A stretch of 64,000 bases of DNA from Hydrolagus colliei. Lineage: Eukaryota. Shown in pieces: positions 4,296 through 47,808 of this stretch; positions within the stretch are counted from its first letter, which is position 1, and each line of letters starts with the position of its first letter. The translations under genes and the position numbers were made by a program. A model generated the notes under the pieces. It worked only from the letters and a program-made list of their open reading frames with translations. It searched no databases and was not told the origin of the DNA. The stretch is from assembly GCA_035084275.1 (NCBI GenBank), contig CM068772.1:3100001-3164000 (forward strand). The letters are read 5' to 3'.

Positions 4296-4523
<228 letters not shown>

Positions 4524-17647: not shown

Positions 17648-19707
17648 ATTGAATCACCTCCTCTCATTTATTTTTCATGGTATAGGTATTACAGCAAGTA
17701 GCAAGAACAATATTTGTAAAGTAATATTTTTATATCATAGATGTTAAGTCATTTACTTAACAACAAAGCAGTATGGAGGTTGAAATCCCAGCAAGGTTTG
17801 TCCTTTATGTCTAACAACAACAGTTGTGATGAGCTTCTGCAGTACTGTCTGCCAAATCATTACGGCAAGGACATCATAACCTACCAGCTTTCTTGTAGGA
17901 ACAGTTAATTATGAGGGTGGTCAGGGTTTCAGAAACAGCCATCCTCCACTATTCTACTACATTGCAAGTTGAAGAAAAACTTTTATTTTAATATTATAGT
18001 AAAACTGCATTCGGCAAAACTATCCCAAAAGCTGGCTGATAAAGTCAACGTCCCACACTAAAGTGTTAATGCCAATTGTTAGTGCCTTTATAATCGCCCA
18101 AACTGAGTATCTACCAACTCAAATATCAAACCTGGTACTCGTCTGTTCTGCCCGTGTGTAACACACCGTTCAATAAATTTTCCCACCAAACCATTGAGCA
18201 TGCAGTGATAATTTTTGGCCATTATAAATAAATCCAAATGAATGCATAGAGCATACAGCTTATTGGAAGTGCAAAATGTTAGCTTCAAGGGCACAGCTGT
18301 TATAAAACTAGACAACACAGCCTGCAGACATAATTTATACCAATCTTTTGTTAACCCAACTGGAGAGCAGATTGAGTGGGGGTGTTTCTTAACCCTGCTT
18401 TCTAAGATAACCCAGTCAAATCTAATGGAACTTACCCCCATGTGTAGCTGGAATATAAATCAAGACAAGAAAGCCAGAATTGAAGCCTGAGCCAAGATTA
18501 TTTAAACTCCGTCGCATTACATATAAAGGACGAACGTAACCTGATGACTTGCGAACTGAGAATGAATTGTGGTCGAATAGCGCACAGATATATTTGCACC
18601 GTTTTGTCGATTTTCACTCTTAAACTAGAGATGATTAAGTGCTTGATATTAGATCAGATTTCCATAAATAAGGGATTTTGACTGTACCATAAAGAAATGC
18701 AAGGAGCAGTTGTGTTGCCAACCAACTATCTACAAATGTGTGGTAAGCATACAAAGTGTATAAAACAACAACAACAACAACAACAACAACAAAATTATAC
18801 TTGTACAGCACTGCCTTTCACGTCAGGAAGACGTCCCAAGGCACTGGACGGTCATTGTTTCAGACCCGAGCTGCAATATGTCAGATACGATAATCAATCT
18901 CCAGATCACAGTCTGCTTATACTTGATTTATACCAAGTAGCCATCACCAAGGTCATAGGAAATAAGTGCATGCTTATGTAAATTTCATGCATACCTTAAT
19001 ACAAGAAAAATTTATGGAAAAAAATGAATCGCATCAATGGTATTCATAAAATTTTATACACTGAACAACATAATAGGAATTTGTTTAAAAATCTTTTTAC
19101 CATTATTTCTCTGAGATTAACAGAATGCTGCTGCCAAGACATAATTTATAAAACAAATCCATTGTCTGAATATTGTAATCTCAATGACAAGCAATTAACA
19201 TATTACCTTTAACTGTGCTCAAACCAAAAAAAATGTTTGGCAATGACTCAATAATGCAGTTATCTTGGGTATAATTTGTTTGCAGAAGAAATCTATGACT
19301 AATCTACATTATCTGTAGAAGCTTGCCTTTGCAAGATTGCAACCTACAAGTCATTCTTTAATAGCAAGCACAGAACTGTGCTCTTTCCCCATAATTGAAT
19401 ATACCTTCATGTTTTGTGATCATATGGTTAAACATATACTCATCTTTGATGAAGAAATACAATTAGCTTTCTTGAGAAAATAAACAAACTCTCGCCTCAT
19501 ATATAAAAAAACAAATAAAAGATGTTTGCAGGCATGAAATGATGGAGTCAAGAAGAGACAAGTGCAGTCTGCATCACTTAGATTTTCACATGCCTTTGGC
19601 ATTTTTTGTGCCATAACACCAATGTGCTGCCAAAGATGCAAAACCTTAAAATGTTCCACAAGTGGTTCATGCAAAGGGCTACAACACAACTATGCAAAGA
19701 TGTGGCA

Positions 19708-19797
19708 GGGGGGGGGGGGGGGGGGCGGGGGGGGGGAAGGGGGAGGGGGGAAGGGGGGGGGGGAAGGAGGGGAGGGGGGGGGGAAGAGGAGGGAGGG
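19708..19797 (+). repeat. G-rich homopurine run (G-quadruplex-capable)
   Basis: ~90 nt of G tracts separated by single A/C bases. Confidence 0.85.
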
Positions 19798-21042
19798 AAA
19801 GAAAAAAAGAAAAAATCCTGAATTATGTTTGATAGTTAAAGCATCAACTTCCATTATGACAGTCGAGGTTAGTGCAAAACTGCTGCCCATAAAAGCTACC
19901 ACCGTACTGAACATCACATATGGAAAAAATTAGGTCACTAGATAATGCAGAGTATAGTCGAGACCCAAAATACCGCTTAAATTGTTTCACAAAATAAATA
20001 TTTTCCTGCACTAGTATCTTATCATCTAATTTGCTCACCTACATTAACGATTGTCTGATTAGTCCAACCACAGAAATTATTTTTTATATAAACCAATGAA
20101 AGAATTCCAGTGACATTCTTTGCATAATTCTGGAAATTTGTATGTTTACTTGACTTTGCTAACATGCTGAGAGTAGAGGTATTTGTCCAGTTGGAGGATG
20201 CTCTCATTTATTCCATATGGAGTCAAGCTGCTCACTAAGAGACTCACAAGTTCTAACAAGGTAGGGTGGTCCCAAATCAGTGAACAAATATCCAAATGAC
20301 AAATCACCATGGGGAGACAAAACTGGCAGCATCTTCTACAATATAATTTTCACTCAATAAGTTCTAAGGATTTTGTGTTGCACCATCTGATTTCATCAAA
20401 ATATACAGTTTATATTATTGTATTAAATCTTTTAAAAAATTGCAACAAAAAAGTTTGGTTAAATTTTAGGCAGGTTTCATTTATGAGAAAGATATTCACA
20501 TAACCTCACCTAAAATGATCTACAACATTAACCTAACCCTAAACATCTAAGATTAGCTGCAGTCTTGAGTATTTTTAAATAATTAATCATTTTAATATTT
20601 TCGAGATGCAACCATCGCAAATTCCTCTCTTCCAGCTGGTCACATTCCACTTTTCTCTGAGGGAATCTGGTCCTGTCTCTAGTGGCAAAACTGTATGCTA
20701 CAGTACTTCAATAGAAATGAAGTAAAAAATATAAGATGATTGCTCCATTGAGTATTCAATTATAAAACAATGAATAAGATGTACATATTTGTACTGACTG
20801 GCCCATTGGATGTCAGTATTCTCTACTGGAATTTTTACAACTGGCCTTTCAAACTATTTCATTCATACATTATGAATGAATAAATCATGGCTCAAGTCAA
20901 TCATTCAGTTCACTATAATCACATTTATGGGCAGTAGATTACATATTTTTCACCAATGCATTGCTGTTATTGCAAAATATTTTGGATAAACTAATTAAAT
21001 AAAACAAAGGCTCTGTGATGTATTGAATAAGTAGATTAATGT

Positions 21043-21310
21043 GGAATCCTGAAGCTCAGTGGTTAGAGCACTCACCTCACAAGTGAGACCTGGGTTAGAT
21101 TCCCAGCAGGGCAAAATGATGAGCAAGTTCTTATATTCCACACGACTCTGTTTACCTGACAGTAAATAGGTTGACAGATCGTGTTTCCGGGGGTAATAAT
21201 TCCTTCCAAAAAATTGATCCGTTAAACCCATGACTCTGTGGAATATTTTGAGACTTCTTGAAGATGTGATGAGGCATCAAATGCAAGGATTATTATTATT
21301 ATTATTATTA
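21043..21310 (+). mobile_element. tRNA-derived SINE with (ATT)n tail
   Basis: A-box AGCTCAGTGGTTAGAGC, B-box-like GGTTAGATTCC, tail ATCAAATGCAAGG(ATT)n. Confidence 0.8.
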
Positions 21311-21516
21311 TCCCTGAAAGCCTATTCAGTGGACAACGATGGTTGCATCTCGACAACTGAACAGATCAGGGGAGGCTCCATACCAAGCTTATGCTCTTTG
21401 CCAAGGTAGCACTAGGATATATTAGTTTTGATGAGTTGTGATAAGGAAAGGCATGGAAGAAAATCGGTCCAAGCTCCAACACATAATCACCTTCCACCAA
21501 ATCCAACAACGGAAAT

Positions 21517-22360
21517 CAACAACAACAACAAAATTACACTTGTATAGCGCCTTTCACGTCAGGAGGGCATCTCGAGGCACTGGACGGTCATTGTTTCAGA
21601 CCGGTGCTGGGGTTGGGGAAAGGGGAGGATTTGGGGTGACCAATGGAAACGCCAAAGAGGAGGATCTTGGGGTGGGACTTGAAGGAGGACAGCGAGGGGG
21701 CGAGGTGGAGGGATTGTCGGATGGAGTTCCAGAGGTTGGGGGCAGAGTGGCTGAAGGCTCGCCCGCCAATCATGAGTGTCGGGGGATGTGGAGCAGGCTG
21801 GAGACTGCTGAGCAGAGGGGGCGGGTAGGTTGGTAAGGAATTAGGAGGCCACAGAGGTAGGGTAGGGCATGAATGTGAAGACCAGGATGTTGAATTGGAT
21901 CCTCTGGGTGATGGGGAGCCAATGGAGTCGAGCAAGGATGGGGGAGATGCGGTCATGAAGCTTGAAGTGGTAGGGGACAAGAGCCGCAGAATTCTGGATT
22001 ATCTGCAAACTATGGAGGGAGGAATTGGACAGCTGACAAGCAGGGTATTGGCGTAGTCAAGCTGGGATGTAATGAAGGCGTGAATGAGGGTTTCAGCAGC
22101 CTTGGGGAGTGAGGTAGTGGTGGAGTCAGGCAATATTGCAGAGATGAGGGAAAGCAGAGCGGGTCATGACTTGGATGTGGGGGAGGAAAGACAGCTGAGG
22201 ATCGAACAAGACCCTAACTGACTGGCTTCAAGAGGTTGAGTGAGAAACCACGGAGGTTGATGCTGCCTGTGCCTGATGCATGAAGGCAGTGGCACGAGTC
22301 AATCAGGAAGGCCTCAGTCTTGTTGACATTCAACTGTAGATTAGCTCTCATCCAAGACTG
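21517..22360 (-). mobile_element. 5'-truncated L2 LINE, ~840 bp
   Basis: Reverse-strand ORF fragments such as IGGRAFSHSAPNLWNSIRQSLHLAPSLSSFKS, an LQLNVNKTEAFLI-like remnant near 22330, and a (CAA)n tail on the plus strand at 21517. Confidence 0.85.
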
Positions 22361-23384
22361 AGCTCTCATCCAAATCAGAGACTATCCCCACTCCCAATCA
22401 CAGGAACAGTCAAAAGGTCTATACCCACTAACACACGGCTCACATATGAATGACAACTTGGATGAGGCTTAAGAAGAAAACTTTGACCCATGAAACCATG
22501 CTCAACTGAAAGAAAATCAATGACAATCTGGTTTCTGTAGCAATGCATTGCATCAACTGCCCAACCGAACTCAGCTAACAGGGAGCATTCAAAGAAACCT
22601 TATTTACCCCCCTCCCACCAAAACAAAATCCATCAATTTGGTGATCGGTATTCTAAAATTACTGGATGTTTCTGCATTAGTGAGAAAATCAATCCAAAAT
22701 CTCCAAATCCCAGCGTTCAGATCTCATTTTGTCCTCTAGGTGAAACACAAGAGTTCTATTCCTTTAATTCGCCTCGGCTTTTAAGCGGAAATTTTTTTTT
22801 TTGCAAATGACACATCGAACCAACCACTAGCAAAACATTTGTTGCCTTAATGGAGAAGGAGAAGAAAAGGGGAGGAAGGAGAGGGGTGAAAAGAGCCAAA
22901 ACACATTCCACTGCCAAACTCACCTCCAAACAAAAAAATCACGGTCACCCAATGGGAGAGAGAAAAAAATGTTCTCTCTCCCACCCCCCCAACCCACTCG
23001 TCCACCCCCCGACTCCCCAAAAAACGTTTTTTATATTTAAAAAAAGTTTGCCACAACCTGTTACATAATCTGACTGCGTTTTATTAGAATAATACATTAT
23101 TATTACTACATGTATATGAAACAAAATACAAGAAAAATCTTACAAGATACGTGGGGAGTGGTGGTGGTGGTGGGGGGGGAGGGAGGGGGAGAGAAATGAA
23201 GACACAGATACACATTACATTACAGCCCCGTTAAACAATATTGTTCCAGGTCTCTCCAATGCCATGTCACGCACAGATTTGAAGGAGCCTGATGAGAGCC
23301 AGGCGCAGTGCAGTGCTCGCTCTCTCTCTCTCTCTGTGCCACAAAAAACACCCTTGCCCCGGACAATTTTAGGTACTTAACACT

Positions 23385-23405
23385 GATATATGTGTGTATA
23401 TACAG

Positions 23406-23438
<33 letters not shown>

Positions 23439-23760
23439 TATTTATATATATATTTATATATATATACATTTATATATTAATGTTTGTATATATATATATA
23501 TAGTTCATATATATGTAGTGTGTATATAGTGTATATATATGTAAATAACACTCACACGTTTAGCACATTTATACAGCAAAATGTATATTTTTAATATACA
23601 CACATATATATGAACACACATAGATATATAAATATAATATATATAAGCTATATATTAACTCAAAAAAAATCCTTACCATATATACACACACACCACACAT
23701 ATATATATATGGACACACATACATACAGATATATAAAATATATATGTATAAGATATAAAC
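23385..23760. repeat. Degenerate (TA)n/(CA)n low-complexity tract at the start of LRP1 intron 1
   Basis: Visible alternating TA/CA runs. Confidence 0.9.
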
Positions 23761-23802
23761 TGTATCAATCACCCCCACCTAAAACAAAACCAATCTCCTT
23801 AC

Positions 23803-23886
23803 CTTCGGCCGCCTGGGTGGACGAGAGCAATTCAATGCTGGAGAAAACCCCAAATAACAGCGCAGACACACTCCGAGGGCAGGCAT
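23803..23886 (-). CDS. LRP1: LRP1 coding exon 1 (signal peptide), with an apparent 2-nt frameshift
   Basis: ATG at 23886-23884 in ACAATG context, strong donor GAAG|gtaagg at 23803/23802. The frame that joins exon 2 reads VSALLFGVFSSIELLSSTQAAE|AQKTC (hydrophobic, signal-peptide-like). ATG to donor is 84 nt, whereas 82 or 85 is needed for phase 1. Confidence 0.75.
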
Positions 23887-27642: not shown

Positions 27643-27805
27643 NNNNNNNNNNNNNNNNNNNNNNNNNNNNNNNNNNNNNNNNNNNNNNNNNNNNNNNNNN
27701 NNNNNNNNNNNNNNNNNNNNNNNNNNNNNNNNNNNNNNNNNNNNNNNNNNNNNNNNNNNNNNNNNNNNNNNNNNNNNNNNNNNNNNNNNNNNNNNNNNNN
27801 NNNNN
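27643..27805. other. Assembly gap (163 N); probably hides the MBD start codon
   Basis: Run of N. Sequence resumes at GGG AAG GAT TGT, which aligns with residue 4 of MBD5 MNGGKEC. Confidence 0.95.
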
Positions 27806-27910
27806 GGGAAGGATTGTAGCCTCGGTGACCAAGTGGGGTTGTTCGCTGGCAGCCCAGGTTCCTGTTGGCTGGGAGAGGAGAGTGGATCAGGACAGGGTGG
27901 CGTACATCAG
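27806..27910 (+). CDS. MBD6: MBD5/MBD6-family coding exon 1 (5'-partial, +1 frameshift)
   Basis: GKDCSLGDQVG then, one frame over, SLAAQVPVGWERRVDQDRVAYI(S), versus MBD5 [35 protein letters not shown]. Donor AG|gtgagg. Symbol assigned from synteny with DCTN2; sequence is MBD5-like. Confidence 0.85.
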
Positions 27911-28429
27911 GTGAGGGGCTGTGTGCGCACTCGGCTGCCGCGTCTCTCCCCACCCCGCAAAATACAGTCGCTTCACTTTACGGTATGTTCGACGACGTTG
28001 TTTTGAGACGCGTCTCGAAGACTTTGACGAGACTCTGCGTCGGACGCAAGGGATGTTTACTTTCATTATGTCCAGTGTTTGCTGGGTGGGGGGAGAGAGG
28101 GTGGGGGGGTGGGGTGGGGAGTGGGTTTGGGGGAGAGAATTGGCAGATAAACGGCTGATTTTGTTTTTAAACACGGGAGGCTCCTGTGGAGGATTAGCTG
28201 CCGAGTTTCGCCCCACAAAACACGCGGCAAATTATCGTTGAGTCTCAAAGCGTTTCATAGAATATACTGTCAAAAGTGAACTGTCTGTATGTATTGTGAA
28301 TTCTCATATCCCCCCCCCCCCCCCCCCCCACACACACCACCACCACCCCGACCCCCCCCCCCCCCCCACTTCTTCTGTCAGTGGTTTTGTTTCAGGTTCT
28401 GTAAGCTCACCTCTCCCCTTTGTGTCCAG

Positions 28430-28532
28430 TCCCAGTGGCACGGTACTCTCCTCAGTGCAGCAGCTGAGAACGTATCTCCTGACCGAGGGGGCCTGCAAGT
28501 GTGGCCTGGAATGTCCTCTTATCCTGCACAAG
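28430..28532 (+). CDS. MBD6: MBD5/6 coding exon 2 (MBD domain)
   Basis: 103 nt, ccag|T...AAG|gtgagt. (S)[34 protein letters not shown] contains the family CKCGLECPL motif. Confidence 0.93.
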
Positions 28533-28959
28533 GTGAGTCTCCGCCGTTGAGGGAAGCCCGTGCCTCGGCCTCGGCCTCTGTCGAGCCTCCCTGGGATCCG
28601 CTCGTGTCTCCCCCCGCGCGAGAGAGGTGCGGAATATAAACGCACGGTTGCTGGTGTTGTTGTTGTTGTGTATCGTACCTTTCCATGGCCTGTGTGACAT
28701 CCCCTGAAACAGTTTGCAAAGTACTTCAGCGTGGCTTTTTCTCTGGTACGGAGAGAGGAGGCTGACATGCGCAGAGCTCTCCGTGTCGGTCAGTGTCACT
28801 CTCCCCTCGACCGCCAGAAGGTTGCGGGTTCAAGCCCCACCTCGCGACTTCTGAGCTCACGGTCTTTGGGTTTCTCTCCATGCCTCATGTAACAGTCCCC
28901 CCCCGGTTTCCCATTCGTTCGAGGGTTGGGATGGTCTCGCGTGCAAATGGCCCGTACGT

Positions 28960-29132
28960 CTCTGGAAGACGTTGCCTCCCTTCAAGGGGACACCTTGAGA
29001 CCTTCCTCTTCGACCCAACCTCCCACCCCACCCCACCCCCAGCTCAGGTCCAAACCCCTACCTGTCCAGCACCTTGGGTTGTCCCCCCAAAGTGAAAGGC
29101 GCAGTGTAAATCCCATTTTGTTGTTGTTGTTG
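28960..29132 (+). mobile_element. L2 LINE 3' fragment
   Basis: CTCCCTTCAAGGGACACCTTGAGACCTTCCTCTTCGAC...GTGAAAGGCGCAGTGTAAATCCCATTTTGTTGTTGTTGTTG. Confidence 0.75.
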
Positions 29133-29151
29133 ATGAGACTCTGGGTTGCAG

Positions 29152-29326
29152 GCGTTCAGCTTTGATCCTGGGGTGAGTGTGAAGCGAAGGACGGCCGAGG
29201 ATGTCAAAGCGGACGAAGATGTGCTGAAGCTCTGTAATCACAAAAGGAAGATCATCGCCATGGCCACGCTTCACAAGAGCCTGGAGAGCACACACTCATC
29301 ACTCACCCTGGCCAGCCCCGCCACCG
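29152..29326 (+). CDS. MBD6: MBD5/6 coding exon 3
   Basis: gcag|GCG...ACC G|gtacgt. [45 protein letters not shown] versus MBD5 [45 protein letters not shown]. Confidence 0.93.
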
Positions 29327-29817
29327 GTACGTACCAAACACTTGTTTTGGGTGGTTGTGGGGGGGGAGGGGAGTGGGGGCGGGGGGCGGGTAGTCATTCC
29401 CCCAGTGACTAGACTCCTCTTCCAGGTCGTGCCGATGAGCTGCGTTGTCATCAGCCGCCTTGGGAAGTCCTCCCCTCCCGACGTGAGACGTGCTCTGTAA
29501 CTGTAATTTTGTTGTCGTTGGCTCAAAGGGCCAGATGACCCCTGGCTCCATTGTGACATTACTTTGCAAAGAGTTACAGTATCTCTGGGGTTTACAACCA
29601 TTATTATAAACGGATATAACATTACCCGAGAAGGTTTTACTCTCAAGAGAATGTCTTGGGATTGTGAAAGGCGCTATATCAAGCGCCAGGATCAGTGTTG
29701 TTTATGACCTGAGCTGGGAGGGTGAGGAACCAACCCTTTGTGACCAAAGTGGAAGACCGTGAACTGGGCAAGTCTTCGTTTGTGATTCCAAAGTCTCTTT
29801 GTTTCTGTGAATTTCAG

Positions 29818-31748
29818 GAGGGAATGCAGGCCTGCTGACCCACACTACCCCCCCCGGGCCAGCGCTGGGCACACCGCAGCATTCGCTATCGCCAGAGTAC
29901 AAGAATGTTTTTCTGTCCAAGCTCATGGGGGCTCCCAACTCCCTGGGAAGGCCCTTCCAGCCGGTGTCTTCTCCGGACCAACAGCACGACCCTCACTCTG
30001 GTTACCCCCGGCAGAGACACGGCAGCTCTGACCACAGACAGACTTCTCCTTGCTCCCGCCATCGTGGGGGAGACCCTCCCAATCCCATGGGGGCCGGGAC
30101 CCTGCCCGCCACTGGCGCTCTGTCTCCTCGCCTCGACGGGAAAGGAAGATGCGAAACTTTTCCCAGGACTTATTCCCCTTTTAACCCTGAACTCCATTTG
30201 CACCAAAACCCTTTGATGGCCGCGGGGCTGCCACCGAAGCCCCAGGCGCTGCTCTCGCACGGTATGATCAGCCCTCCGCCTCCTCTCCCTCCGCTCCCCC
30301 CGCTCTCCAAACAGCCCCCTGCTCAAGAACTCTTGCGGCTTCACCTCGAGCGCTGAGGTCACGGCCTCCGGGTTCCAGAAACGTTCTCCGGGCCCCGCCG
30401 CCTCTCTTCAGAATCCCAAACAGTCCTTCGAGAAGGATCCCTTCGGCATCTTGGATCTGATCTGCCGCAGCCCGGAGGCCTCGGTTGGAGGGGTGGCTGC
30501 CCCGAATGTAAACGTGGCGCAGTCTGCGGCCCCGCCGCTCGGACCGTCTCCCTTCGCCGGCTCACGGAAACTCCCACCCCGAGTCCTCCCTCGCTCAAGC
30601 AGTCGGGGTGGTCAAGCGAGCGCCCCAGAGGTCCCGGCCTTCGTCCACCTCCTCGGACCCGGGCGGCTACACGCTGACCGGCCAGCAGACACGCTGCAGC
30701 ACCCCAAAGTCGCACTCGAGATCCCCGAGGTCCCTGAACTCCCCCAGGCCCTCGTTGCCGCCGAGTCCCAAGGCCAAAGTGGACGGGTTTTTCCAGCAGT
30801 ACAAGGAGCTCTCCTGCCCGCTCTTCGCTGCGGCCGGCAATGCCGTGAGCCACCACCAAAGCCTCCCCCTGCACCTGCCCCTGCCCACTGACAACGTGCC
30901 TCAGCCGATCAAGCCGCCAGGCCTCCTCGGCATGCCTTTGAACGAGATCTTCAGCCAACCGCACAACGCTGCCTTCTTCCCAGCGAGCAGCTTGCTCTCG
31001 GCGGCGGCCAAAGCCCAGCTGGCCAGTCAGAACAAGATGGCGGCCGGCGGCGGGTACCACCACGCCACGGCCACCGGCAACCATCGGACCCCTGAGATAC
31101 AAAGCACTTTACCAAACCATTTCTCTCCCGCTCCCAATCGGCTCCTACCCGTGGCTGACCCCGGCCGCGGCCCCCAGAGGGACAGGGGGCCACCGGCTCC
31201 ACACAAGGATTTGTCCAAGAAACGGAAAGCCACCACGCCCACGGTCCTGAGCATGCTCAAACAGTCCCAAACCAACCTGGCCAACGGGTCCAAGCTCGAA
31301 GCTGAGGTACCGAGGAACCAATGGCCCAATCTCTCCCTGGTCAATCAGCCCATGTCTCAGTTACTTCACTCGTTGAGTGCCCAGAGCTCTCAGGCAAATA
31401 GCAATAACAGTACTTGTCATATAAACTCTGTGTCTTTTCCACCTTGCACCAATAACCAGTTCAGTATCATAGCATCCAACCTGAACCCTTCTCCTGTGCA
31501 GAACCTACCGGTTGTGAATGTGCCTGTTGGGTCTGTTGGAGAGACAGCCTCCAGCCAAAGTCTAAGCACTAACCTACTCTCTAGCTATCAGGAGGCCAAC
31601 AGTCACCTTCTTGGGCTGGTGGGCCAGCTGGCTCTGTGTTCCCCGGGGCCGTCTTCGGGAAGTGCCCCGGTCCTCAAGATTCCAGCCTCCACGCTGCTCG
31701 TGCTCCCACACGGCTCCGGCGGCGGCAGCCAAAACCCGGCTGACGTGG
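29818..31748 (+). CDS. MBD6: MBD5/6 coding exon 4 (large Pro/Ser-rich exon) with two apparent +1 frameshifts
   Basis: ttcag|GA...GTG G|gtaagt. MBD5-like blocks YPRQRHGSSDH, EKDPFGILD and PQRSRPSSTSSD fall in three successive frames. PGLLGMPLNEI, FPASSLLSAAAKAQLASQNK and KRKATTPTVLSMLKQSQ follow in the third frame. Confidence 0.88.
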
Positions 31749-31969
31749 GTAAGTCGACCTCAGAGCGACCGGGAGTGTCCCCCCCCTTTTAACGTGCTTC
31801 TTGCGGTGACGCCAGCGAGAGAGAAACCCACCTTCGCGTGCGTTGTCGGGTGTTTGTGGGTTAAGAATGTGAGAAATTTGCTTCAGCGAAAGAAGACCGT
31901 CTGGTTTGCCCCATCCACCATCCTGGCAGTCGCTTGCCATGTTGTGTCCCAAACTATATACCAGTCACT

Positions 31970-32160
31970 TAATCCACGACTGTTTGGTTGGGGTGGGTGG
32001 GGGGGGTCGGGACACGGACGCTGTCGTGCGCAATTGGCTGCCGCGTTTCGCCCACAAAATAGGCAGTCACTTCACTTGACAGTATATTCTGTGAAGCGCT
32101 TTGAGACACAGTCTGGAAGACGTGAAAAGCCGCGATATCAAACGCCAGGAATCATTTATT
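31970..32160 (+). mobile_element. SINE 3' half
   Basis: GTGCGCAATTGGCTGCCGCGTTTCGCCCACAAAAT...TATTCTGTGAAGCGCTTTGAGACAC...CGATATCAAACG, the same tail as 34990-35140. Confidence 0.75.
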
Positions 32161-32305
32161 ATAAGTTGACTATCAGGGCAGAGGCCATGCAGGCTTGGAG
32201 ACACCACCCTCCAACTAAGATATATTTGGGGTTTTGTTTCCCCAGAATAAATGGATTCTAATGAATGATTGCTAAACTGTGGGTGTCTTTCTGTTTGTGT
32301 TACAG

Positions 32306-33093
32306 AAGGTGCTGGCCAGTCTGTCTCCATCTCTATCGCTGGCAAAGGTCATCCCGCCATCACCAAGACAACCTCAGTCCTCAATCCTGGTGTGATAGTT
32401 ACCACTACAGTAGATGGATCCTTGTCCAGCCCATTGCCTCTTGCAGATGCCTTTGCGTTCATTAACCAGGATCAGGTGCTTCCATTTGGACACTCGACAT
32501 CCCCGAGTGGTGGACAATCCAATCCTCTGAACCCAAACCTACTTAGCTCCCTTCCCATCTCTCTACCCATGAACCAGCAACCGACTCTCAACCAAAACCC
32601 ATTGCAGTTGGTTTCCACTGCAGTAGAAGGGCAGGGCGATGGCATGTTGAACCTGTTGGGCCTTCTTAACCCTACCTTGAACCCAGCTTTACCTCCAAAT
32701 TCCAATGACCTCGATGGACAAACACTACAAGCCCTCCAGATCCTAATGACTGCCTTGCATAAGAACCAGTCCCAAGCAAGCTTGCTTCCCCTGGCATCCC
32801 TTAACCTGTCTGTTCCAGACTTGGTACAACAGCAGACTAACTCCTTGCCCTCTGTTATCCAGCTTCCTACCCTACAGGACCACCTATCCAGTGCCCAGGC
32901 AACAGGAGAAAGAGCAGACGGATTGATAACCAATCCACTTGGCAATGCATTTGGTGGACTCTCTAGTAATGATGGCTCCTCACAATCCCTTCTCTTCCCA
33001 ACAGCGTCTTCTACCCCAGCCTTACTGGCCTTAAACCAGCAACTCCTAGCTGCACTCCTCAGTTCTTCGTCAGACAATGTTAGTCAACCTCAG
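32306..33093 (+). CDS. MBD6: MBD5/6 coding exon 5 (long form)
   Basis: tacag|AAG (NAGNAG)...CAG|gtaggg. SISIAGKGHPAITKTTSVL and LNPNLLSSLPISLPMNQQ match MBD5 HPAITKTTSVL / LNPSLLSSLPISLPVNQQ. Confidence 0.9.
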
Positions 33094-33778
33094 GTAGGGT
33101 ACACCGTTGAGGGAGACGCTCAATTAGTTGTGAGTGAATGAATGAGTGTAGTAGCCCACCTCGTGTGTAAAGCTGCCTTTCCTTTGTTTGCGCGGGTCTT
33201 GTGTTCTGGAGCGTGTTTTCAATCGGTGAGTTCATTGTGCGCGTGGGTTTGCTCAGCTGGCTGATGGCCTGAGTGGAAACGCGTCACCCTGGCATAAGAG
33301 TCTCCAAACCCAGCTGAGAATTCCATGCCTCCTCCTACGTACACGTGCAAATCCCAGAGTAGATTGTTGCAATGGAACGCTCTCTCTCTCTCAGGAGGGA
33401 CGCATGTTGCTTGCCTATATCTGAAGAGCAGTAGGTGGTGGTTGGCATGAACCAAGGCTTGTGGACAGTGTGCGTTGGGGGCTAACTGCTGGAGTCTACA
33501 GCTGAAACTCCGTGGCTTGCTGCGGAGAGTGCTGTAAAACGCTCGTTACACTTCATTCACCTGAGAGGTTGAGCAAGGCTACGTTCGCTGTCTTGGTGTT
33601 CAGTTTGAAAGGAAATGGTGCCAGGGTTATTTGGAGCCAGTGACACTGTGGGAGGCAAGGGGCGGGTGGGAGGGGGAGTTTTTAGAAGGCGAAGGAAGGC
33701 CATTTATATATGAGCTCCCTCCCCGGGGAAGGTGGAAAATGTGTGGCCTGTGATGTTTACTGCTGTTCCTATCCGCAG

Positions 33779-33974
33779 GTCTGTCTTTCAGCCGTTTCCC
33801 TAGGCTCTGCAAATACCACCAACACCGCCTCCCCTTCCCTGGAGGGCAACGTGGTCTTGCCGATGGCTGAATCCTTGCTGCCTTTAGCCAATTCTGGAAC
33901 CGCAGCCTTTCCCGCAAAACTCAACGCTCTCACGCCTCACCTGCTGAACCCTCTACTAGGTGCCAGCTTTGTTG
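33779..33974 (+). CDS. MBD6: MBD5/6 coding exon 6
   Basis: gcag|GTC...GTT G|gtgagt, 196 nt, phases consistent. ...VVLPMAESLL...PAKLNALTPHLLNPLLGASFV resembles the MBD5 long-isoform segment. Confidence 0.85.
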
Positions 33975-34541
33975 GTGAGTTCCTGCATTGGGTTTCATTC
34001 TACCCACTCGCTCCAATTTCCAATTTTGCTCCCTATTCTCTCTCGAAGACATGTCGACTCCCATTTTTCCTACCACCGTTAGGGTGTGAGGAAGGGGCTG
34101 GGGGAGAATTTATACGTGAGCTTCCCCGGGAAAAGTAAACCGTGAAGCTCTGTGTGACTTTATGGCTGTTCCTATCCAGGGTTGTTGTGAGCTTGTTTCC
34201 CTCGAGTCAAGCCTGTGCTTCAGATACCAGCTCTTGAAGCGCTTTGAGACATCTAAAAGACTTGAAAAGCGCTACATCAAATGCAAGGATTTTTATTTGT
34301 TACTGATAGTGAGCATCAAGAGGGTATTTATTGGACGCGGGAGAAGGCTTGGTCCTCAGTCAGTGCCTTCGGGAGGCTGGGGGGAGGGGAGGGCAAACTT
34401 CTTTCCATAGAAACCCGGCCAAACGATTTCCCCCCGTACCGGCAACAACCGTCACCGCGTCTCTCCCGGCCCCGATGGGAGGTCGGCGGCGACTGGAGGG
34501 AGCCTCGGATGGACTGGACTGTCCCCGCTCTTGTTTTGCAG

Positions 34542-34735
34542 GCGACCTGTCGGCGTTGAGCCAGCCTCAGCTGCAAGCCATTGTCGGCGGCAACTCCATG
34601 TTCCTCCAGAGCCAGCAGCCCCTTCTCCAGGCTCTGCAGGGGCCGCTCGGGATCCAGATGTTCCAAAGCCAGCTGCCCTTCCCAGGCCCCATCCATCACA
34701 CTAACCCCTTGTCCTGTCTCTTCCACAATGTCCAG
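34542..34735 (+). CDS. MBD6: MBD5/6 coding exon 7
   Basis: ttgcag|GC...CAG|gtaagt, 194 nt. Ends NPLSCLFHNVQ versus MBD5 NPMACLFQNFQ. Confidence 0.9.
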
Positions 34736-34787
34736 GTAAGTGGGCGCCTGCGGGCGGACATGGAGTTGCGCCGTGTTGTATCGAATG

Positions 34788-35140
34788 GGAAGCTCCGTTA
34801 GCTCAGTGGTTAGATGGCTCGCCTGACAAGCGCGAGAGACCTGTGTTTTGAATCCAGGCAGGTCAGGGTGAAACCTTGGGCAAGTTTCCTTACTCCACAC
34901 ACACACACACACACACACACACGCGCTTAATACTCCCCCCAAAAAACCACAATAATAAAAATTGGTTATTTTCAATCCACGGCTGTTTGTGGGGGACGCT
35001 GCTGTGCGCAATTGGCTGCCGCGTTTCGCCCACAAAATATACAGCCAATTCACTTTGCAGTATATTCTGTGAGGGACTTTGAGACATCGATAAGACATGA
35101 AAAGCTCTACATCAAATGCAAGGATTATTATTAATATTAT
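34788..35140 (+). mobile_element. Full-length tRNA-derived SINE (~350 bp) with internal (CA)n and (ATT)n tail
   Basis: A-box AGCTCAGTGGTTAGA, body GGGCAAGTTTCCTTACTCCA(CA)n, GCTGTGCGCAATTGGCTGCCGCGTTTCGCCCACAAAAT, tail ATCAAATGCAAGGATTATTATT. Confidence 0.88.
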
Positions 35141-35194
35141 TAAAGCATTATTTTCAACGTCTCACTGGGTTTTAATTGATATTTTACTTTGCAG

Positions 35195-36088
35195 GTGAAT
35201 GTGGGTCAGTCTCTGAACCTCCCTAAACTAGGAAACCTTCCCGACCCGTCGGCCCCTCCAGCAGAGACCTCCTTCTCCAGCCTGATACCTTCCCACCATC
35301 ACTCGGCCAGCCCCGGCCACCAGCCCCTGCAGCACAAGCTTCACGTGGTCGAGCCCGACAGCGCTTGCATGGACGCTCTGTACAACACAGTCCTGGACGC
35401 GGTGGGGAAAGTGACGAGCACAGCGCCTGGCAGCGTCTTCTACTCCAGGACAGTCCCAGCCTTCAGCACCGCCAGTGCCTTTACAGCCTCTGTGTCTGAC
35501 TCTGCCGTGGCGCCCAGCGGCGAGAGCGAGCTTGCGGCGGGGGGAGGAACCCTGCTGGCCCGGGGCCACGCAACGGAGCAGCCACCCAGCGACCCCCACC
35601 CCGTCAGGCTCTTCGCTGAGCGGGCCTGCGGCACCGAGCGGCTCGGCCGAGACCCTGGCTCCTCGCGCCACCATTTCGTGGAGCAGGCCGCCGCTAAAGA
35701 CACCGCCAGCAATACGTGTACGTGTCGCAGCCGTGCGCACTGTGAAATCTCAGGGCATCACCGTAGTGTGGAAACATCACCGGTCTCCCGCGGGGAGGCC
35801 GGGGCGGAGGGGGAGAGCCGGGGGGCGACGCAACGAGGCTCCGAGCAGCGGCAGAGACACGTACCGACGGACACCGGGCGCTGCAACGGGGAGGGCCGGG
35901 CGGAGAGCACACACACACGCTCCCTGGGCCCCAGCAAGGGAGAGCTGGCAGAGCACGGGGGGCGAAGGACGAATGACTCTAACAGCCCCGAGGAGGGTCC
36001 CGGGAAAGGATTCCCTCCCTGGGCGGACAAGCCAGCGGGGCTCGGTAGTGTGCAGCAATCCGGTCAGGAAAGGAGTGAGGAAGACAAG
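35195..36088 (+). CDS. MBD6: MBD5/6 coding exon 8, ending in a degenerate PWWP-like segment
   Basis: ttgcag|GTG...AAG|gtgggt, 894 nt. DALYNTVLDAVGK and PAFSTASAFTASVSD match MBD5 DAIYKAVVDAASK / PALSAMSAFTASIGD. Ends GKGFPPWADKP...QERSEEDK. Confidence 0.88.
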
Positions 36089-36105
36089 GTGGGTGTTACT
36101 GCGGT

Positions 36106-36445
36106 AATAACAACAACAACTTGGATTTGTATCGCGCTCTCGCCTGACTCCACGCCGAACGGCGTCTCAGAGCGGGATCCCGTGGCTGAGCTGGTGGGGG
36201 TTGGGGGGGGGGGGGGGGGGGGGAGAAGGCGACCGAAAGCACCGTCGAAAAGAAAGGTCTTTAGCCGAGACCTGAAAATAGGAAAGGAGGGGAGGGTAGC
36301 GGTAGTGAAGGGAGTGAGGGGGGGAATTCCAGAGCCTCGGGGGGTGGTGGCTGAAAGCACGGCCACCGATGGTGGAGCGGAGGGTTCGGAGGCCAGACCC
36401 GGTGGAGCGAAGGCAAAGGGTGGTGGTTGTAAGGGGAGAGGAGGT
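36106..36445 (-). mobile_element. 5'-truncated L2 LINE
   Basis: Reverse strand LRSTGSGLRTLRSTIGGRAFSHHPPRLWNS / FRSRLKTFLFDGAFG. (CAA)n tail at 36106-36120. Confidence 0.85.
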
Positions 36446-36743
36446 CAGAAAGGAACTATTATTATAATAATACTTGTGTTTGATATAAAGCCTCATATTG
36501 TCTACAGTGTCTCCACCAAACACAGGATAGCTGTACAGTATAAGATTCTCTCGGGTTACGTTATTGGAACAGAACCACACAAACATGACATACGCATCCT
36601 GCGGATGTCTCTGAAATCCAGCACCAGGGACTCAACGGCCAGAGTGTGGAGCACTCTAACCCAGAGGGCTTTGCTCCTCTTCCCCTTCCCTTGGCCCCCC
36701 ACCCAGAGACTCCTGGCTCATAACCCTGTACTTTCTCTGCCAG

Positions 36744-36817
36744 GTAATACCTGAGAACATGAAGACACTATTGGCAGGGCTCGAAGCGCCGCACAGAACC
36801 AGGAAAAGAAGTAAGAA
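36744..36817 (+). CDS. MBD6: MBD5/6 coding exon 9
   Basis: ccag|GTA...AAG AA|gtaagt, 74 nt. VIPENMKTLLAGLEAPHRTRKRSK versus MBD5 [24 protein letters not shown]. Confidence 0.88.
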
Positions 36818-37115
36818 GTAAGTAACTGCGCTGACTGCTGCCCTGCGGAGTTAGCCTCTGGCCGGATGGGTCAAAGTCTCAATCTTGGTCTAGGAATGGA
36901 AGTGTCAGCCAACATTGTCACCCCCTACCCCCACTCCATGTCACCATACTTCAGCATATAGTTGATTGATGCCTTTTAAGAGAAGAAAAGTTGGGTGGTG
37001 GAGTGGGGGGGGGGATATAAGAAAATGACCTATTTGGTGTGGGAGAGATTGTTGAAGATTTAACGTTGGAATGATTAACGTTCAGTCTGTCCTCTCTCTC
37101 TCTCTCTCTCTGTAG

Positions 37116-37191
37116 CACTCCCAAGATGAACAGCAATCTGGAAGTTGCTTTGCAAGAGGCCATGATGGAACTAGACCAAATAACAGCCAAT
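37116..37191 (+). CDS. MBD6: MBD5/6 coding exon 10
   Basis: (CT)n tgtag|C...AAT|gtaagt, 76 nt. TPKMNSNLEVALQEAMMELDQITAN versus MBD5 [25 protein letters not shown]. Confidence 0.9.
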
Positions 37192-37755
37192 GTAAGTGGG
37201 TTATCTGGGTGGGGATCGCTCACGGTTGGGGTGCTGGGGAGATGGGGGGGGGTGGGGGGGGGGGGGGGGGGGGGGGGGGAAGGGAAGCTGACCTCAGTAA
37301 GCAAGTAGTAAACATACAGAACCAGTTCTCTGGGGATATTAGAAGCAGAAATTGGCGATTCTTTCAAGTATAAATGAGATGAGATTTGTGTCGGGAAATG
37401 ATATGTTGGGTTACAGTACATGGTTTGGGAAGCGCTCTGAGACGCCGTGCGGCATGGAGGGCGCTATATGAATCAAACTTGTTGTTGCTGGAGAAGAGGA
37501 CAAGTAAGTTGGGCAAGTAGGTCACTGCCAGAATGGCGGCAGGCAAAAACAAAAGGACCTTGGGACTTCATTTCACATAAGAAAATTCTTACGTGACTGC
37601 AAAAGAAAAATTTAAATAGGTGGGTGGAAAAATAGGCCGCAGGAATGTGGATGTGATGGGGGAGTTCCAGGCTGAGGAAGGAAGTTAGACCAACATTTGA
37701 GAGATAACTCTATGGAATACTTTATCCCCCTCCCCCTTTTTTTTTCCCCTGGCAG

Positions 37756-37827
37756 GCTGACCAGCCATCTCCAAAAGAAAAAACAAGGAAGCCAATGAAA
37801 AGCAAACGAAGGAAAATTGTTCGGTAG
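37756..37827 (+). CDS. MBD6: MBD5/6 last coding exon (basic C-terminal NLS-like tail)
   Basis: ggcag|GCT...TAG. ADQPSPKEKTRKPMKSKRRKIVR* versus MBD5 [23 protein letters not shown]. Absent from the ORF track. Confidence 0.88.
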   Translation, partial: ADQPSPKEKTRKPMKSKRRKIVR

Positions 37828-42447: not shown

Positions 42448-42534
42448 TTATTTGGTGACGTTCTTCATTCGAGCCTCGATGCCGACAAAATTTCCCTCAA
42501 TCACCGCCAGGTTCTCCTTCATGGTGTTCTGAAC
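42448..42534 (-). CDS. DCTN2: DCTN2 (dynactin p50/dynamitin) last coding exon
   Basis: ctacag|GTT...TAA. VQNTMKENLAVIEGNFVGIEARMKNVTK* versus human [28 protein letters not shown]. Confidence 0.95.
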   Translation of the reverse strand, partial: VQNTMKENLAVIEGNFVGIEARMKNVTK

Positions 42535-42644
42535 CTGTAGCAGACATGGGAGGTGAGTTGACTGGAGAGGCGGGCGAGCGAGCGCACATAAAGTCACGAT
42601 AACTACACCTGCTGCTGACTCATCAGCACTACTCGATAATACTG

Positions 42645-42972
42645 TAATAATATCCTTGCATTTGATATAGTGCTATTCACGTCTTCTAGACGTCTCAAAG
42701 CGCTTCACAGAATATACTGTAAAGTGAATTGACTGTATATTTGTGGGCGAAACGCGACAGCCAATTACGCACAGCAGCATCCCCCACAAACAGCCGTGGA
42801 TTGAAAATGACCAATTTATTACAGGGTTTTTCGAGGGATTATTATCAGGCGTGTGTGTGTGTATGTGTGTGTGGAGCAAGGAAACTTGCTCAAGGTTTCG
42901 CCCTGACTGGAATCGAACCCAGATCTCCCGCATGCAAGGCGAGTGCTCTAACCACTGAGCTACAGGTCTCCT
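42645..42972 (-). mobile_element. Full-length young tRNA-Ala-derived SINE
   Basis: Reverse strand GGAGACCTGTAGCTCAGTGGTTAGAGCACTCGCCTTGCATGCGGGAGATCTGGGTTCGATTCC (A box, TGC anticodon loop, intact B box) through a tail ATCAAATGCAAGGATATTATT. Confidence 0.9.
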
Positions 42973-43339
42973 CCCAGAACTCAGCCAATATCACACACAA
43001 AACCCACTCCACTTTTACAGTATGTATTCCGTGAAGCACTGCGACACGATAAGGGGCTACATCAAGGTCTGCATTTCCGCAAATCCACGACTGAATTCAA
43101 TTGGAGCGTCACAGAATGGAGGAGAGGCTGGTCCAGTGATTACATTACATCCCGAGGCGCCTCTTCTGCAGGCCGAAATAGCAACGTTTTGTTGGTTGTA
43201 TCACACCTTCAGGCTCTCCCAATTTGTGACTACACTTAAAACAGGGGAACTGAACTGGGCAGTAGCCATCTCTGTGTGTGTGTGTGTCTGTGTCTGTGTG
43301 TCTGCGTGTGCGTGTGTGTCTGTGAAGTAAATACTGTAC

Positions 43340-43431
43340 CTGGCTTAACAAAGTTGTGTTTTCCTTCAGTGTGCCTGTGATGATCTGCTGAGTGGAATCC
43401 AGGTGAGTCAGCAGCTGACCAAATTGCATGG
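43340..43431 (-). CDS. DCTN2: DCTN2 coding exon (92 nt)
   Basis: tttcag|CC...CAG|gtacag. (A)[30 protein letters not shown]. Confidence 0.95.
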
Positions 43432-43833
43432 CTGAAACACAATCAGACACGTCAGGCCAGTTCACCAGCAGCTGAACCTCCACACACGCTGACATATATA
43501 TATACACACATATATATATCCCTCCCCAAGAATCTGTCCGTTCCCTCTGGGAAGAGCGAGAGGACTGTGTTCAGCACCCAGCAATTCCATGTTAAGATAA
43601 AAAATATATATATTTTTAATGGTTTAACCATTTAACACACATTGTGCAGTCTGGTTTGGTAAATATTTTCTGCTTTTCTAATCCCTAATCCTCCCTCTTC
43701 CCGCCACCCACCCACCCCACCCCCAGTCCTCTGCTCGGGTCAGATACAGTGACTGTCCAGTGCGTTGGGATGTCCTCCTGACGTGAAAGGCGCTGTCTAT
43801 ACAAGTGTAATTTTGTTGTTGCTGGAATCCTAC

Positions 43834-43936
43834 CTTGCTCATGGAGCTCCTTCACAGTAACTAGCCGCTGGACTACCTGTGGGAGGGTGGTAGCCATTGC
43901 GTCCCATTTCTGCACCAGCTCATACAGCTGAGCTAC
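43834..43936 (-). CDS. DCTN2: DCTN2 coding exon (103 nt)
   Basis: gcag|GTA...CAA G|gtagga. [34 protein letters not shown]. Confidence 0.95.
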
Positions 43937-44237
43937 CTGCAGGCAACAACAGGGAGGGAGGGAGGGAGTGAGTGACCGTGATCTGAGCACATCACAACAA
44001 CACGATGGAACAGGCTCCAGGGGCTGAATAGCCAAACTTCTGTCTCTATGTTCCACGATTGCCTGTCCAGGCGAATGTTAAACGATCTTACGACACCACA
44101 AGGAAACAGAAGTTTCAGCCATCCTCCAGATTAATCTATTATGATTTACGATCAACAAGCTCGGACACAAGATGTGATTAAAGCTAAACTAGATGGTGCA
44201 ACATTTCAGAATGCGCGGATAGAGACAATCGACTGAC

Positions 44238-44309
44238 CTTGCTCTGAGTCTCTGCGTCCTCGCTGGCTGTTTTGTGCTTGGCGATCTCGTTCAGCTTCCC
44301 CAAGACACT
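44238..44309 (-). CDS. DCTN2: DCTN2 coding exon (72 nt)
   Basis: ttaag|AGT...AAG|gtcagt. SVLGKLNEIAKHKTASEDAETQSK. Confidence 0.94.
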
Positions 44310-44760
44310 CTTAAGGGTAAAAGAATAAGAATCATTTCAGATGTGATCAAGAGAGGCATTGGACAGCTGCCACAGGGACCAGAGATGCAATATTTCTTCT
44401 TGGTTTTAAGATCAAGTGCATTGTCTAAGCATTTAAAATGGCGCAGAATGTTTAAAAACTCCCTCATTTTGAAGCCCAGTTTCCAACGGTAAAATAAATA
44501 TAATTATTTAACCAATTTTAATGCCGAATTTAGGAATTTCCCAAATGTGCCCCGCTGTCACTGTTCCCGAGTGGCCCGCAAGGCTCGGTCACTCATTCTC
44601 CCACAGCGTTTCTCAGCCACAGCCTCTATGGCTTCTCTCATTCAGATCCTGCTTCCCAGCAGATCAAGAGTTGGGTCAGACTGGAATATTAAACAGTAGT
44701 ATAAGTAGTTCATCTTCTTCTTCTTCGCCCTCTCATGTCGACACACACTGAGGAACTTAC

Positions 44761-44838
44761 TTGTAATCTTGCTTCAATCTGATCAAGTGTTGCTGAATCC
44801 AATGTGCTCACTTTAGCCTGAAGAATCTCAATGGTTCC
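44761..44838 (-). CDS. DCTN2: DCTN2 coding exon (78 nt)
   Basis: tgtag|GGA...CAA|gtaagt. GTIEILQAKVSTLDSATLDQIEARLQ. Confidence 0.94.
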
Positions 44839-45237
44839 CTACAGGGACAAGGGAAGAAGGAAAGAGAAGTTCAACATCTGACAGATTGAATTTTACAACC
44901 AGTCCCACCCTGACAGTTACGTTTGTCTCTATTGGAATATCACTAGTTTTTTCAGACATCTTCCTGATGTGATAGGCACTTGGTAAATGTAAATAACCCT
45001 TCCTCCAAGCTGATAATATTAATAATAATCCTTGCATTTGATATCGCGCTTTTCACGTTTAATCAATGTCTCAAAGCGCTTCACAGAATTTACTGTAAAG
45101 TGAATGGATTTGTATATTTGTGGGCGAAACGTGGCAGCCAATTGCGCACAGCAGCGTCCCGCAAAACCAGTCGTGGATTGAAATTATTTACAGAGCACCT
45201 TTCACGTCGGGTCTAGGATAAAGACGGAGATGCTTAC

Positions 45238-45276
45238 CATTAGACACGGGCCCTGCAATCCGACAGTAAGTGGGTT
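45238..45276 (-). CDS. DCTN2: DCTN2 coding exon (39 nt)
   Basis: tgtag|AAC...ATG|gtaagc. NPLTVGLQGPCLM versus human NPLSAGLQGACLM. Confidence 0.92.
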
Positions 45277-46594
45277 CTACAGGAAGGAAAAACAAAACAT
45301 AACAAGATAAATGTGATGATTAAAACAAGTAGCGAGATTCTGAAGCCCCTGAGAGCTAACCTGTGCCATTAGCAATGACAGCAATGACCAATTCATCATT
45401 CCTCACTGAAGGAAAAATAGATGTCATTATACCAGGCTAATAATAAGCCTTGTTCACCTTCCAACAAGCAATACAAACATTCGGCTGAGCCAACAGAAAA
45501 GGCAGCAAAAAAAAACTAAATTTGTAAATCCAAAATACAGTAAGATTCGCATGAGTATGATCTGTAATTGCTTAGGTGGTGAATCCACCCAAATCCTGTT
45601 CAAGAGTTTATATTCTATACAAATTTGACTTAACACAAGGCTTAGCATATGCCCTATTAAATGTATGGTCCCACGACTGATGTGACGTTTGCTGTGGATC
45701 AGTTATTTGCATCATCAAAGAGGTTTTCTCTGCCTCTTAAAACGGATGCACACTGGCTTCAGATCAATATATGGGATTACTTCCCTTACTGAGTTAATTC
45801 CTCGGAATTGTCAACCAGATTAAGCGTTACAGAGAGAGAGAGAGAGAGAGAGGGGGAGGGAGGGAAAGAAAAAGTACTGCTGCTGCCGCTGCTGTAATAA
45901 TCCCCGATTACAGGCCGTGTGAGCAGCGAGGGAAATTCTGGTACAGTGAAGATTCTGCGTTGCAACCATCCGCTGGTGATTGAAGAGCAAGGAAATTAAA
46001 CAGACTGTTGGTGGTGGGTGGAAGCCATTTAGAAATTGGTGGCTCGCAACTCAATAACGGCAACACTTGGCAATCATCGTTCCATTTAAGTCCAATCCTG
46101 GGATGGCCTGCCAGTGAGAGAGATCGGCAGTGAATCAGAAATGTAAATCTGGCACGTTGCATCTGGACTGTGAAAGCAGCCAATGGGTCCCGCCTGCTTT
46201 ATTCACGTACTGACTGGCTTCCGTGTGGAAGTATCGAAGTAAAGAAATATCCAAGTTTCCTGAATTAAGTAGTAGTAATAATGATAATAATAATAATCCT
46301 TGCCTTTGATAAGAGTGCCTTATCACACCTTCAAGACCCATTAAAGCACTTCACACGGTAGCCCAAAGCCCAATATCGCATGGGAACCTGCTGGTCCTTG
46401 CACCGTTTCAAGTGATGCTACTCACAATTTTTGCCCCGTCACAAAACATGAGGAACCAGTCAAGGTGATTGACTGAATGAAAGGGAAAACAAAGGCATTC
46501 TATTCCCAAGCAGGGGACATCAGGCGATTTGACAAGCATACAATAAATCTACACATTGGTTGACAAGAAACCAGGCTTGCGAGATTGTCTGTAC

Positions 46595-46660
46595 CTGTTT
46601 ATCAGAGGATGTGCCCACAGCGATCTCCAGCTCTGACAGCCGTTTCTCCAGCTCCGCCAC
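46595..46660 (-). CDS. DCTN2: DCTN2 coding exon (66 nt)
   Basis: tacag|GTG...CAG|gtacag. VAELEKRLSELEIAVGTSSDKQ. Confidence 0.94.
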
Positions 46661-47019
46661 CTGTAGGAAAACATTGACAAAATTGAGACTGAATTTAATA
46701 AAAAATGTAAGAATTTTTAAAATTATTTACACCCACTAATAAACCACCCCCCCAACCCGCACCCCGACCCCCACACGAGAGAAAAACATTGAATCAAATC
46801 TGCAACAATAAAAAACGTGCGATTTTCCATACACAGGTAAGTCCGGAGGGCAGCAGATTTTGTGACTGGGGTAGAAAGAGCTGTGTGTGCTGGGAGACGC
46901 TGCCAGTTTTACCCGGTAAACACTCTACCCATGAGGAACGCCTGTGGATATGACCTCAGCGGTTGCTCACTCGCACTCGTACGCCACTATAACACCCGCC
47001 TCCGTCACCTCATCCTTAC

Positions 47020-47167
47020 CTTTGATGCCTGAGTGAACTTGTACTGCTCCGGTCGGTAGTATAACTCATAAGTGATGGCATTTACATCAGATCCTTTACC
47101 GGAGCTTTTGTCCACCGTCGAGTGTCCCTTTCCACTCTTTGTGACGTCCAGTTGGGCAAGCAGTCGC
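47020..47167 (-). CDS. DCTN2: DCTN2 coding exon (148 nt)
   Basis: gcag|G...AAG|gtaagg. RLLAQLDVTKSGKGHSTVDKSSGKGSDVNAITYELYYRPEQYKFTQASK. Confidence 0.94.
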
Positions 47168-47797: not shown

Positions 47798-47808
47798 GCG
47801 TCCCTTAC

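Follow-up and report, generated by a model that had tools for sequence, protein, structure and literature searches.

Which of the two paralogues MBD5 and MBD6 lies beside DCTN2 in a cartilaginous fish, and how much of the ancestral protein does it still encode? We addressed this question in a 64,000 nt stretch of the genome of the chimaera Hydrolagus colliei (GCA_035084275.1, CM068772.1, positions 3,100,001-3,164,000, forward strand), hereafter the window, whose own numbering is used below. An initial annotation had placed here a slow-evolving MBD6 ohnologue of full-length MBD5-like architecture, showing the state before MBD6 was remodelled in the lineage leading to mammals. MBD5 is an intellectual-disability gene, and PWWP is its chromatin-reading domain. 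We consider it quite probable that the chimaera gene is an MBD6 ohnologue whose product joins the BAP1/ASXL complex (PR-DUB) through an intact motif of its MBD, that its PWWP relic cannot read chromatin and, jointly with this, that the frameshifts in its reading frame are assembly errors. The locus reveals no new kind of system, but likely offers a snapshot of PWWP loss in the duplicate of MBD5.

The gene was confirmed as 11 coding exons on the + strand (27806-37827, 4,608 nt in sum). All 10 introns are of the GT..AG type and the motifs quoted in the initial annotation were found, which bears out its exon count. The encoded protein has 1,534 amino acids and zero internal stops when X is inserted at three +1 breaks. 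The start codon is concealed by a gap of Ns, and the complete protein would have about 1,537 amino acids. The gene is already known through its orthologue in RefSeq, elephant shark (Callorhinchus milii) XP_007907525.1 (P0376; 1,533 amino acids), and through shark copies that carry MBD5 names in NCBI or UniRef. The C. milii and chimaera proteins are 81% identical from end to end (1,271 of 1,575 columns), rising to 92-100% in exons 5-7 and 9-11.

The chimaera protein is collinear with MBD5 from end to end, as the initial annotation had claimed. Its description as a full-length MBD5-like architecture is not supported, because the PWWP, the mark of MBD5, is predicted from the sequence to be non-functional and to survive only as a decayed relic. 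Pfam PWWP was detected in 5/18 proteins (three MBD5, lamprey and amphioxus) and in 0/13 of MBD6 type, and exon 8 of the window gave no match at E up to 1. The C. milii protein had no PDB match; goose MBD5 matched 26 PDB sequences via its PWWP. For the relic we used a 26-column profile of PWWP strands 1-2, on which the training proteins score 106-115. In each of the four cartilaginous fishes the best tail match of this profile sits at a distance of 115 residues from the C-terminus, the register also seen in tarpon MBD5. The match scored 47.4 in C. milii and 24.5 in the chimaera window (0/200 shuffles as high in either), 11.3 in Heterodontus (4/200) and -2.5 in Pristiophorus (143/200), the C. 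milii relic being better preserved than that of the window and those of the two sharks more decayed. None of the bony-vertebrate MBD6 proteins (n=17) beat 9/200 shuffles. The core VW pair of the PWWP is replaced by EE in both chimaeras and Heterodontus, and the relic of C. milii keeps RTF and the final WP. The 13-residue piece that carries strands 3-4 is absent, and a search for it in intron 8 did not find it. AlphaFold2 folded the C. milii tail, taken in place of that of the chimaera, into two helices and no strand (predicted template modelling score, pTM, 0.24), and an MBD5 control at equal depth into four strands plus helices (pTM 0.63); the alignments were shallow, with three rows, and make these models supporting evidence only.

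In amniote MBD5 isoforms the PWWP strands 3-4 are an optional piece of 13 amino acids, present in 17/274 proteins. The Pfam PWWP score of MBD5 is 57.5 bits with this piece and about 28 without it (P0141 versus P0306 and P0008), and many MBD5 isoforms may have an incomplete PWWP.

What is special to MBD6 of cartilaginous fishes, on comparison of the sequences, is the retained tail, consisting of the closing helices of the PWWP and the basic end. Scored with a profile of the entire C-terminal module, the four cartilaginous fishes reached 57-87 bits, and 17/17 bony-vertebrate MBD6 proteins stayed at 4.6 bits or below. The more ancestral state that had been attributed to the gene holds for this tail, which is kept in cartilaginous fishes and lost in bony-vertebrate MBD6. 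Positions invariant among the four cartilaginous fishes number 23/26 in exon 10, 14/24 in exon 9 and 14/23 in exon 11, with 84/127 in the MBD region and 7/42 in the PWWP relic. We tentatively speculate that cartilaginous-fish MBD6 may present the MBD5 PWWP as dissected by nature, with a barrel that was dead before the chimaera-shark split and a helix that acts as a stand-alone element with its own partner, in that case probably in human MBD5 as well. The 26-residue helix, kept without its domain, is a testable functional element in MBD5, a protein of human neurodevelopmental disorder. Literature searches on the evolution of MBD5 and MBD6, on sharks and on the loss of PWWP, with most subscription journals outside their coverage, listed no description of the PWWP relic or of the retained helix.

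The position of the gene favours MBD6, and together with the sequence makes it likely that this is the MBD6 ohnologue, as first proposed. Human MBD5 lies at 2q23, and MBD5-type loci are found between ACVR2A/ORC4 and EPC2/KIF5C; the neighbours in the window are instead DCTN2 and an LRP-family gene. The initial annotation mentioned neither this LRP-family gene nor the decay of the PWWP. DCTN2, identified by a PDB match to dynactin subunit 2 (E 4e-9), is convergent with the MBD gene at 4.6 kb from stop to stop, as had been reported, its stop codon lying at 42448-42450 on the - strand. This adjacency is that of MBD6 in the 12q13.3-type segment. Literature statements here and below come from excerpts of the papers cited: the human order is MARS-DDIT3-MBD6-DCTN2-KIF5A, with LRP1 likewise at 12q13.3 (PMC3990535), and the same gene set is given for cattle (PMC11460123). 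Promoter baits of the skate lie on Leri_7C at 65.05 (Acvr2a), 65.28 (Mbd5), 65.55 (Epc2) and 65.67 Mb (Kif5c), and skate Dctn2 has a gene number distant from that of Mbd5 (PMC10115646 SI Table 10). These rows, as excerpted, therefore indicate that in one cartilaginous fish the canonical MBD5 locus carries a gene labelled Mbd5.

In phylogenetic analyses the cartilaginous-fish proteins (n=4), MBD5 and bony-vertebrate MBD6 formed three fully supported groups, and the chimaera gene fell outside the bony-vertebrate MBD5 clade (100/98). The phylogeny that the initial annotation had called for, run without a cartilaginous-fish MBD5 sequence, joined the chimaera gene to MBD6 in the best tree, though several observations weigh against the assignment. 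Support for this join was 15 in a quick tree (28 rows, 902 columns) and 68/48 in a tree of 22 rows and 244 curated columns (6 rows dropped), which does not settle the branching order. In the approximately unbiased (AU) test, placing the cartilaginous clade with MBD5 gave a p-AU of 0.368 and placing it outside MBD5 + MBD6 a p-AU of 0.078, neither placement being rejected. Sites polarised on lamprey split into four for MBD6 and three for MBD5. No PWWP-bearing MBD5 of a cartilaginous fish was among the matches listed in protein searches (best 120 of 975; best 120 of 874), lists that are crowded by amniote MBD5 and are not evidence of its absence. Of ten MBD5-like fragments checked by name, none of those that bear a name (many do not) comes from a cartilaginous fish, and no match to a shark MBD5/MBD6 gene was seen in the supplements of PMC11406177 or in 12/24 whale-shark files. 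An Atlas search gave clusters with MBD5 names but uninformative taxa. The skate Mbd5 evidence is a gene label in another species, without sequence. The left neighbour is presumably LRP1 and not LRP1B; PDB, literature and Atlas searches on this point yielded only generic LDLa matches or nothing.

The gene could alternatively descend from MBD5, either as a moved or duplicated MBD5 or as an MBD6 in which exchange with MBD5, following the genome duplication, overwrote part of the sequence. The p-AU of the MBD5 grouping and the three derived sites in common with MBD5 are consistent with such an origin, as are the HPAITKTTSVL block and the terminal helix, both matching MBD5 and not bony-vertebrate MBD6. 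The MBD5-like tail is, however, ancestral, because it is common to lamprey and amphioxus, and the gene sits at the DCTN2 locus while the Mbd5 label of the skate, in the excerpted rows, occupies the canonical one. Unpolarised sites in exons 5-7 also lean towards MBD6, with 27 on the MBD6 side, 13 on the MBD5 side and 5 on neither (53 same, 13 all different), the MBD5 rows in this count being five bird or bird-like sequences, four of them without a name. We regard descent from MBD5 as unlikely. We consider it very improbable that cartilaginous fishes have a third paralogue here, one that is sister to MBD5 + bony-vertebrate MBD6: the corresponding tree keeps the p-AU given above, but is the worst of the three (5.1 log-likelihood units lower), hidden losses would be required, and the gene adjoins DCTN2 as MBD6 does. 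In pairs from the second genome duplication the beta copy evolves faster, as a principle (PMC10115646); the short internal branch would fit such a pair if the principle is applied to MBD5/MBD6. The chimaera gene has evolved more slowly than bony-vertebrate MBD6 and resembles MBD5 more closely than does any such MBD6 tested, in agreement with the initial annotation.

The three +1 breaks raise a further alternative, namely that they are genuine and that the gene is a pseudogene or null allele in Hydrolagus colliei. They are present in the assembly, none of the listed pieces of run X1, which match the window exactly, crosses any of them, and their positions were not seen directly in reads. Run X5 comes from another sample of this species; its piece over 27806-28271 contains 6 gap letters, for a net of +4 (one omitted, five inserted), and in the piece 28380-32045 the 3,666 window letters are matched by 3,664, with 2 gaps. 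X5 omits three letters (1 + 2) in pieces spanning the breaks, and so one letter is missing per break. On the opposite side, the X5 evidence consists of gap counts per piece, the positions of the gaps within the pieces not being displayed, and the C. milii RefSeq record carries a LOW QUALITY PROTEIN flag. A relative supplies two contigs (X13, presumably RNA) that lack the introns, join exons 3-4-5 and 6-7-8, and differ from the window in length by +1 (mod 3) in both break-bearing segments of exon 4. The C. milii protein continues through all three break sites. All splice sites are preserved, no further stop interrupts the reading frame, and the high identity of exons 5-7 and 9-11 to C. milii also argues against decay. 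Exon 1 of the adjoining LRP gene, counted from the ATG to the donor, is 84 nt long and ends in phase 0, while exon 2 requires phase 1. This mismatch, the fourth break of one base in the window and likely an assembly error too, points to local assembly error. A pseudogene seems very improbable to us, and the three frameshifts of the MBD gene are likely assembly errors. For the third break, a true 8-base deletion near 30560 was considered and rejected, as the C. milii spacing fits one extra base near 30518-24.

The protein begins with a non-canonical MBD containing the CKCGLEC insert. The first residue of this motif is number 60 in both mouse MBD6 and C. milii, and the chimaera window encodes it unchanged, with the equivalents of C60, K61, C62 and C66 all conserved. 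Pfam MBD matched the C. milii orthologue with an E value of 0.003, under the gathering score, as it did the MBD5 controls. The two residues directly before CKCGLEC differ (EGAC versus DGTC of other vertebrates), which counts against the reading proposed above. K61 and C66 are required for ASXL1 binding and BAP1 stabilisation (PMC9523997), and the zinc site formed by C60 and C62 is shared with the PHD finger of ASXL2 (PMC12713335). Given the intact motif, the chimaera protein is likely a PR-DUB subunit; by analogy with human MBD5/6, its MBD would bind the ASXL PHD finger at the shared zinc site and stabilise the complex. Because only a decayed barrel relic remains, the prediction is that the protein cannot use a PWWP to read chromatin. 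The MBD5 PWWP is needed for heterochromatin targeting; human MBD5 requires MBD + PWWP for chromocentres and MBD6 reaches them in a quarter of cells (PMC2917364), so that MBD6-like targeting is predicted here. Zebrafish mbd6 compensates in part for mbd5 loss (PMC11077058). The middle part of the protein is long and of low complexity and probably forms a disordered scaffold; the basic C-terminus is likely a nuclear localisation signal.

A remodelling of MBD6 as a single event on the mammalian line, as in the initial annotation, is not supported. MBD6-type proteins have 1,565 amino acids in lungfish, 1,574 in coelacanth, 1,345-1,566 in amphibians (24 records), 902-1,647 in ray-finned fishes (7 records) and 948-1,010, with 16-22% proline, in amniotes (five records: turtle, tuatara, two gulls and mouse); short isoforms (P0014, P0032, P0171, P0365, P0367) and a second tuatara record were left out of this survey. 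Human MBD6 has 1,003 amino acids, versus 1,534 and 11% proline in the chimaera. The long-isoform region can also be aligned in coelacanth, lungfish and amphibian MBD6. Because these proteins are long too, the description of MBD6 as a proline-rich protein of ~1,000 amino acids fits amniotes only and applies to none of chimaera, coelacanth, lungfish or amphibian MBD6. Shortening is amniote-wide, and the long form is not special to cartilaginous fishes. These comparisons order the divergence of MBD6 from MBD5 as barrel first, helices second and length last. A PWWP-bearing ancestor would have been duplicated, the barrel would have decayed by the time of the chimaera-shark split, bony vertebrates would then have lost the terminal helices, and amniotes would have shortened MBD6 and enriched it in proline.

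The single MBD5/6 gene of lamprey, amphioxus and echinoderms shares the MBD motif, the ASSLLSAAAKAQ block and the terminal helix with the chimaera gene, but its PWWP is complete, including the strand 3-4 piece. MBD5 has ~40% identity to the chimaera protein over the first 880 amino acids and 44% in the long-isoform region, and is collinear from the MBD to the basic tail; it differs in having a Pfam PWWP and other neighbours. Bony-vertebrate MBD6 lacks the PWWP as well, has the blocks of exons 5-7 in common and, in human, adjoins DCTN2, but has lost the terminal helices (0/17 above 4.6 bits). The shark proteins of Pristiophorus (P0004; 1,326 amino acids) and Heterodontus (P0010; 1,386 amino acids), labelled MBD5 or MBD5-like, are shorter than the chimaera protein. 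They belong to the same fully supported clade, have no PWWP match and agree with the chimaera in tail length and terminal helix.

Mislabelling by automatic pipelines had been anticipated, and MBD5 or MBD5-like names do stand on genes of Xenopus (P0041), Amia (P0063), Rhinatrema (P0015), Lissotriton (P0044), Heterodontus (P0010) and Pristiophorus (P0004). All six records are of MBD6 type and without PWWP; for Amia and the two sharks the placement comes from a tree. MBD5 labels on shark and chimaera genes can thus conceal MBD6.

Table 1. Features of the MBD gene and its neighbours, in window coordinates.
Feature	Position	Strand	Remarks
LRP-family gene	575..23886	-	head-to-head with the MBD gene; exons 23803-23886, 4364-4486, 575-712; LDLa Pfam matches
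Assembly gap, 163 N	27643..27805		conceals the start codon and the codons next to it; the C. milii orthologue has three residues ahead of the first visible one
Exon 1 (partial)	27806..27910	+	beginning of MBD; +1 frameshift near 27836-27839
Exon 2	28430..28532	+	MBD, CKCGLEC motif (C60/K61/C62/C66 equivalents)
Exon 3	29152..29326	+	conserved block downstream of MBD; joined to exon 4 in a relative's spliced contig
Exon 4	29818..31748	+	Pro/Ser-rich; contains ASSLLSAAAKAQL block; +1 frameshifts about 30297-30300 and about 30518-30524
Exon 5	32306..33093	+	corresponds to MBD5 long-isoform region
Exon 6	33779..33974	+	remainder of long-isoform region
Exon 7	34542..34735	+	LQGPLG block, common to coelacanth, lungfish and amphibian MBD6
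Exon 8	35195..36088	+	weakly conserved; PWWP relic at its end
PWWP strand 1-2 relic, gapless	35963..36088	+	only KGFPPW recognisable; in register, 115 amino acids before C-terminus
Exon 9	36744..36817	+	first closing helix of PWWP, plus basic cluster
Exon 10	37116..37191	+	final PWWP helix
Exon 11	37756..37827	+	basic C-terminus, stop codon
DCTN2	42448..54520	-	convergent; final exon 42448-42534; exon 43834-43936 matches dynactin subunit 2; more exons to at least 54520

The start codon of the LRP-family gene lies 3.9 kb from exon 1 of the MBD gene. Between the two genes, where a repeat tract and two gaps are situated, we noticed no reading frame of DDIT3 or MARS1, in contrast to the human order. 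The tract is a purine-rich minisatellite of ~1.4 kb with ACAC/GAGGG units (24502-25900), situated between the gaps and with an AT skew of 0.7.

Within the MBD gene, intron 5 (33094-33778) is missing from five bird-type MBD5 reading frames, all of them unbroken at the site, and is possibly a gene-structure marker separating MBD5 and MBD6. The acceptor region of this intron (about 33660-33780) is repeated within intron 6 (about 34080-34180), where the copy ends in AG and is a potential cryptic acceptor. The GC content rises from ~35% to 50-61% across the gene (window 26000-36000), with a CpG observed/expected ratio of up to 0.8.

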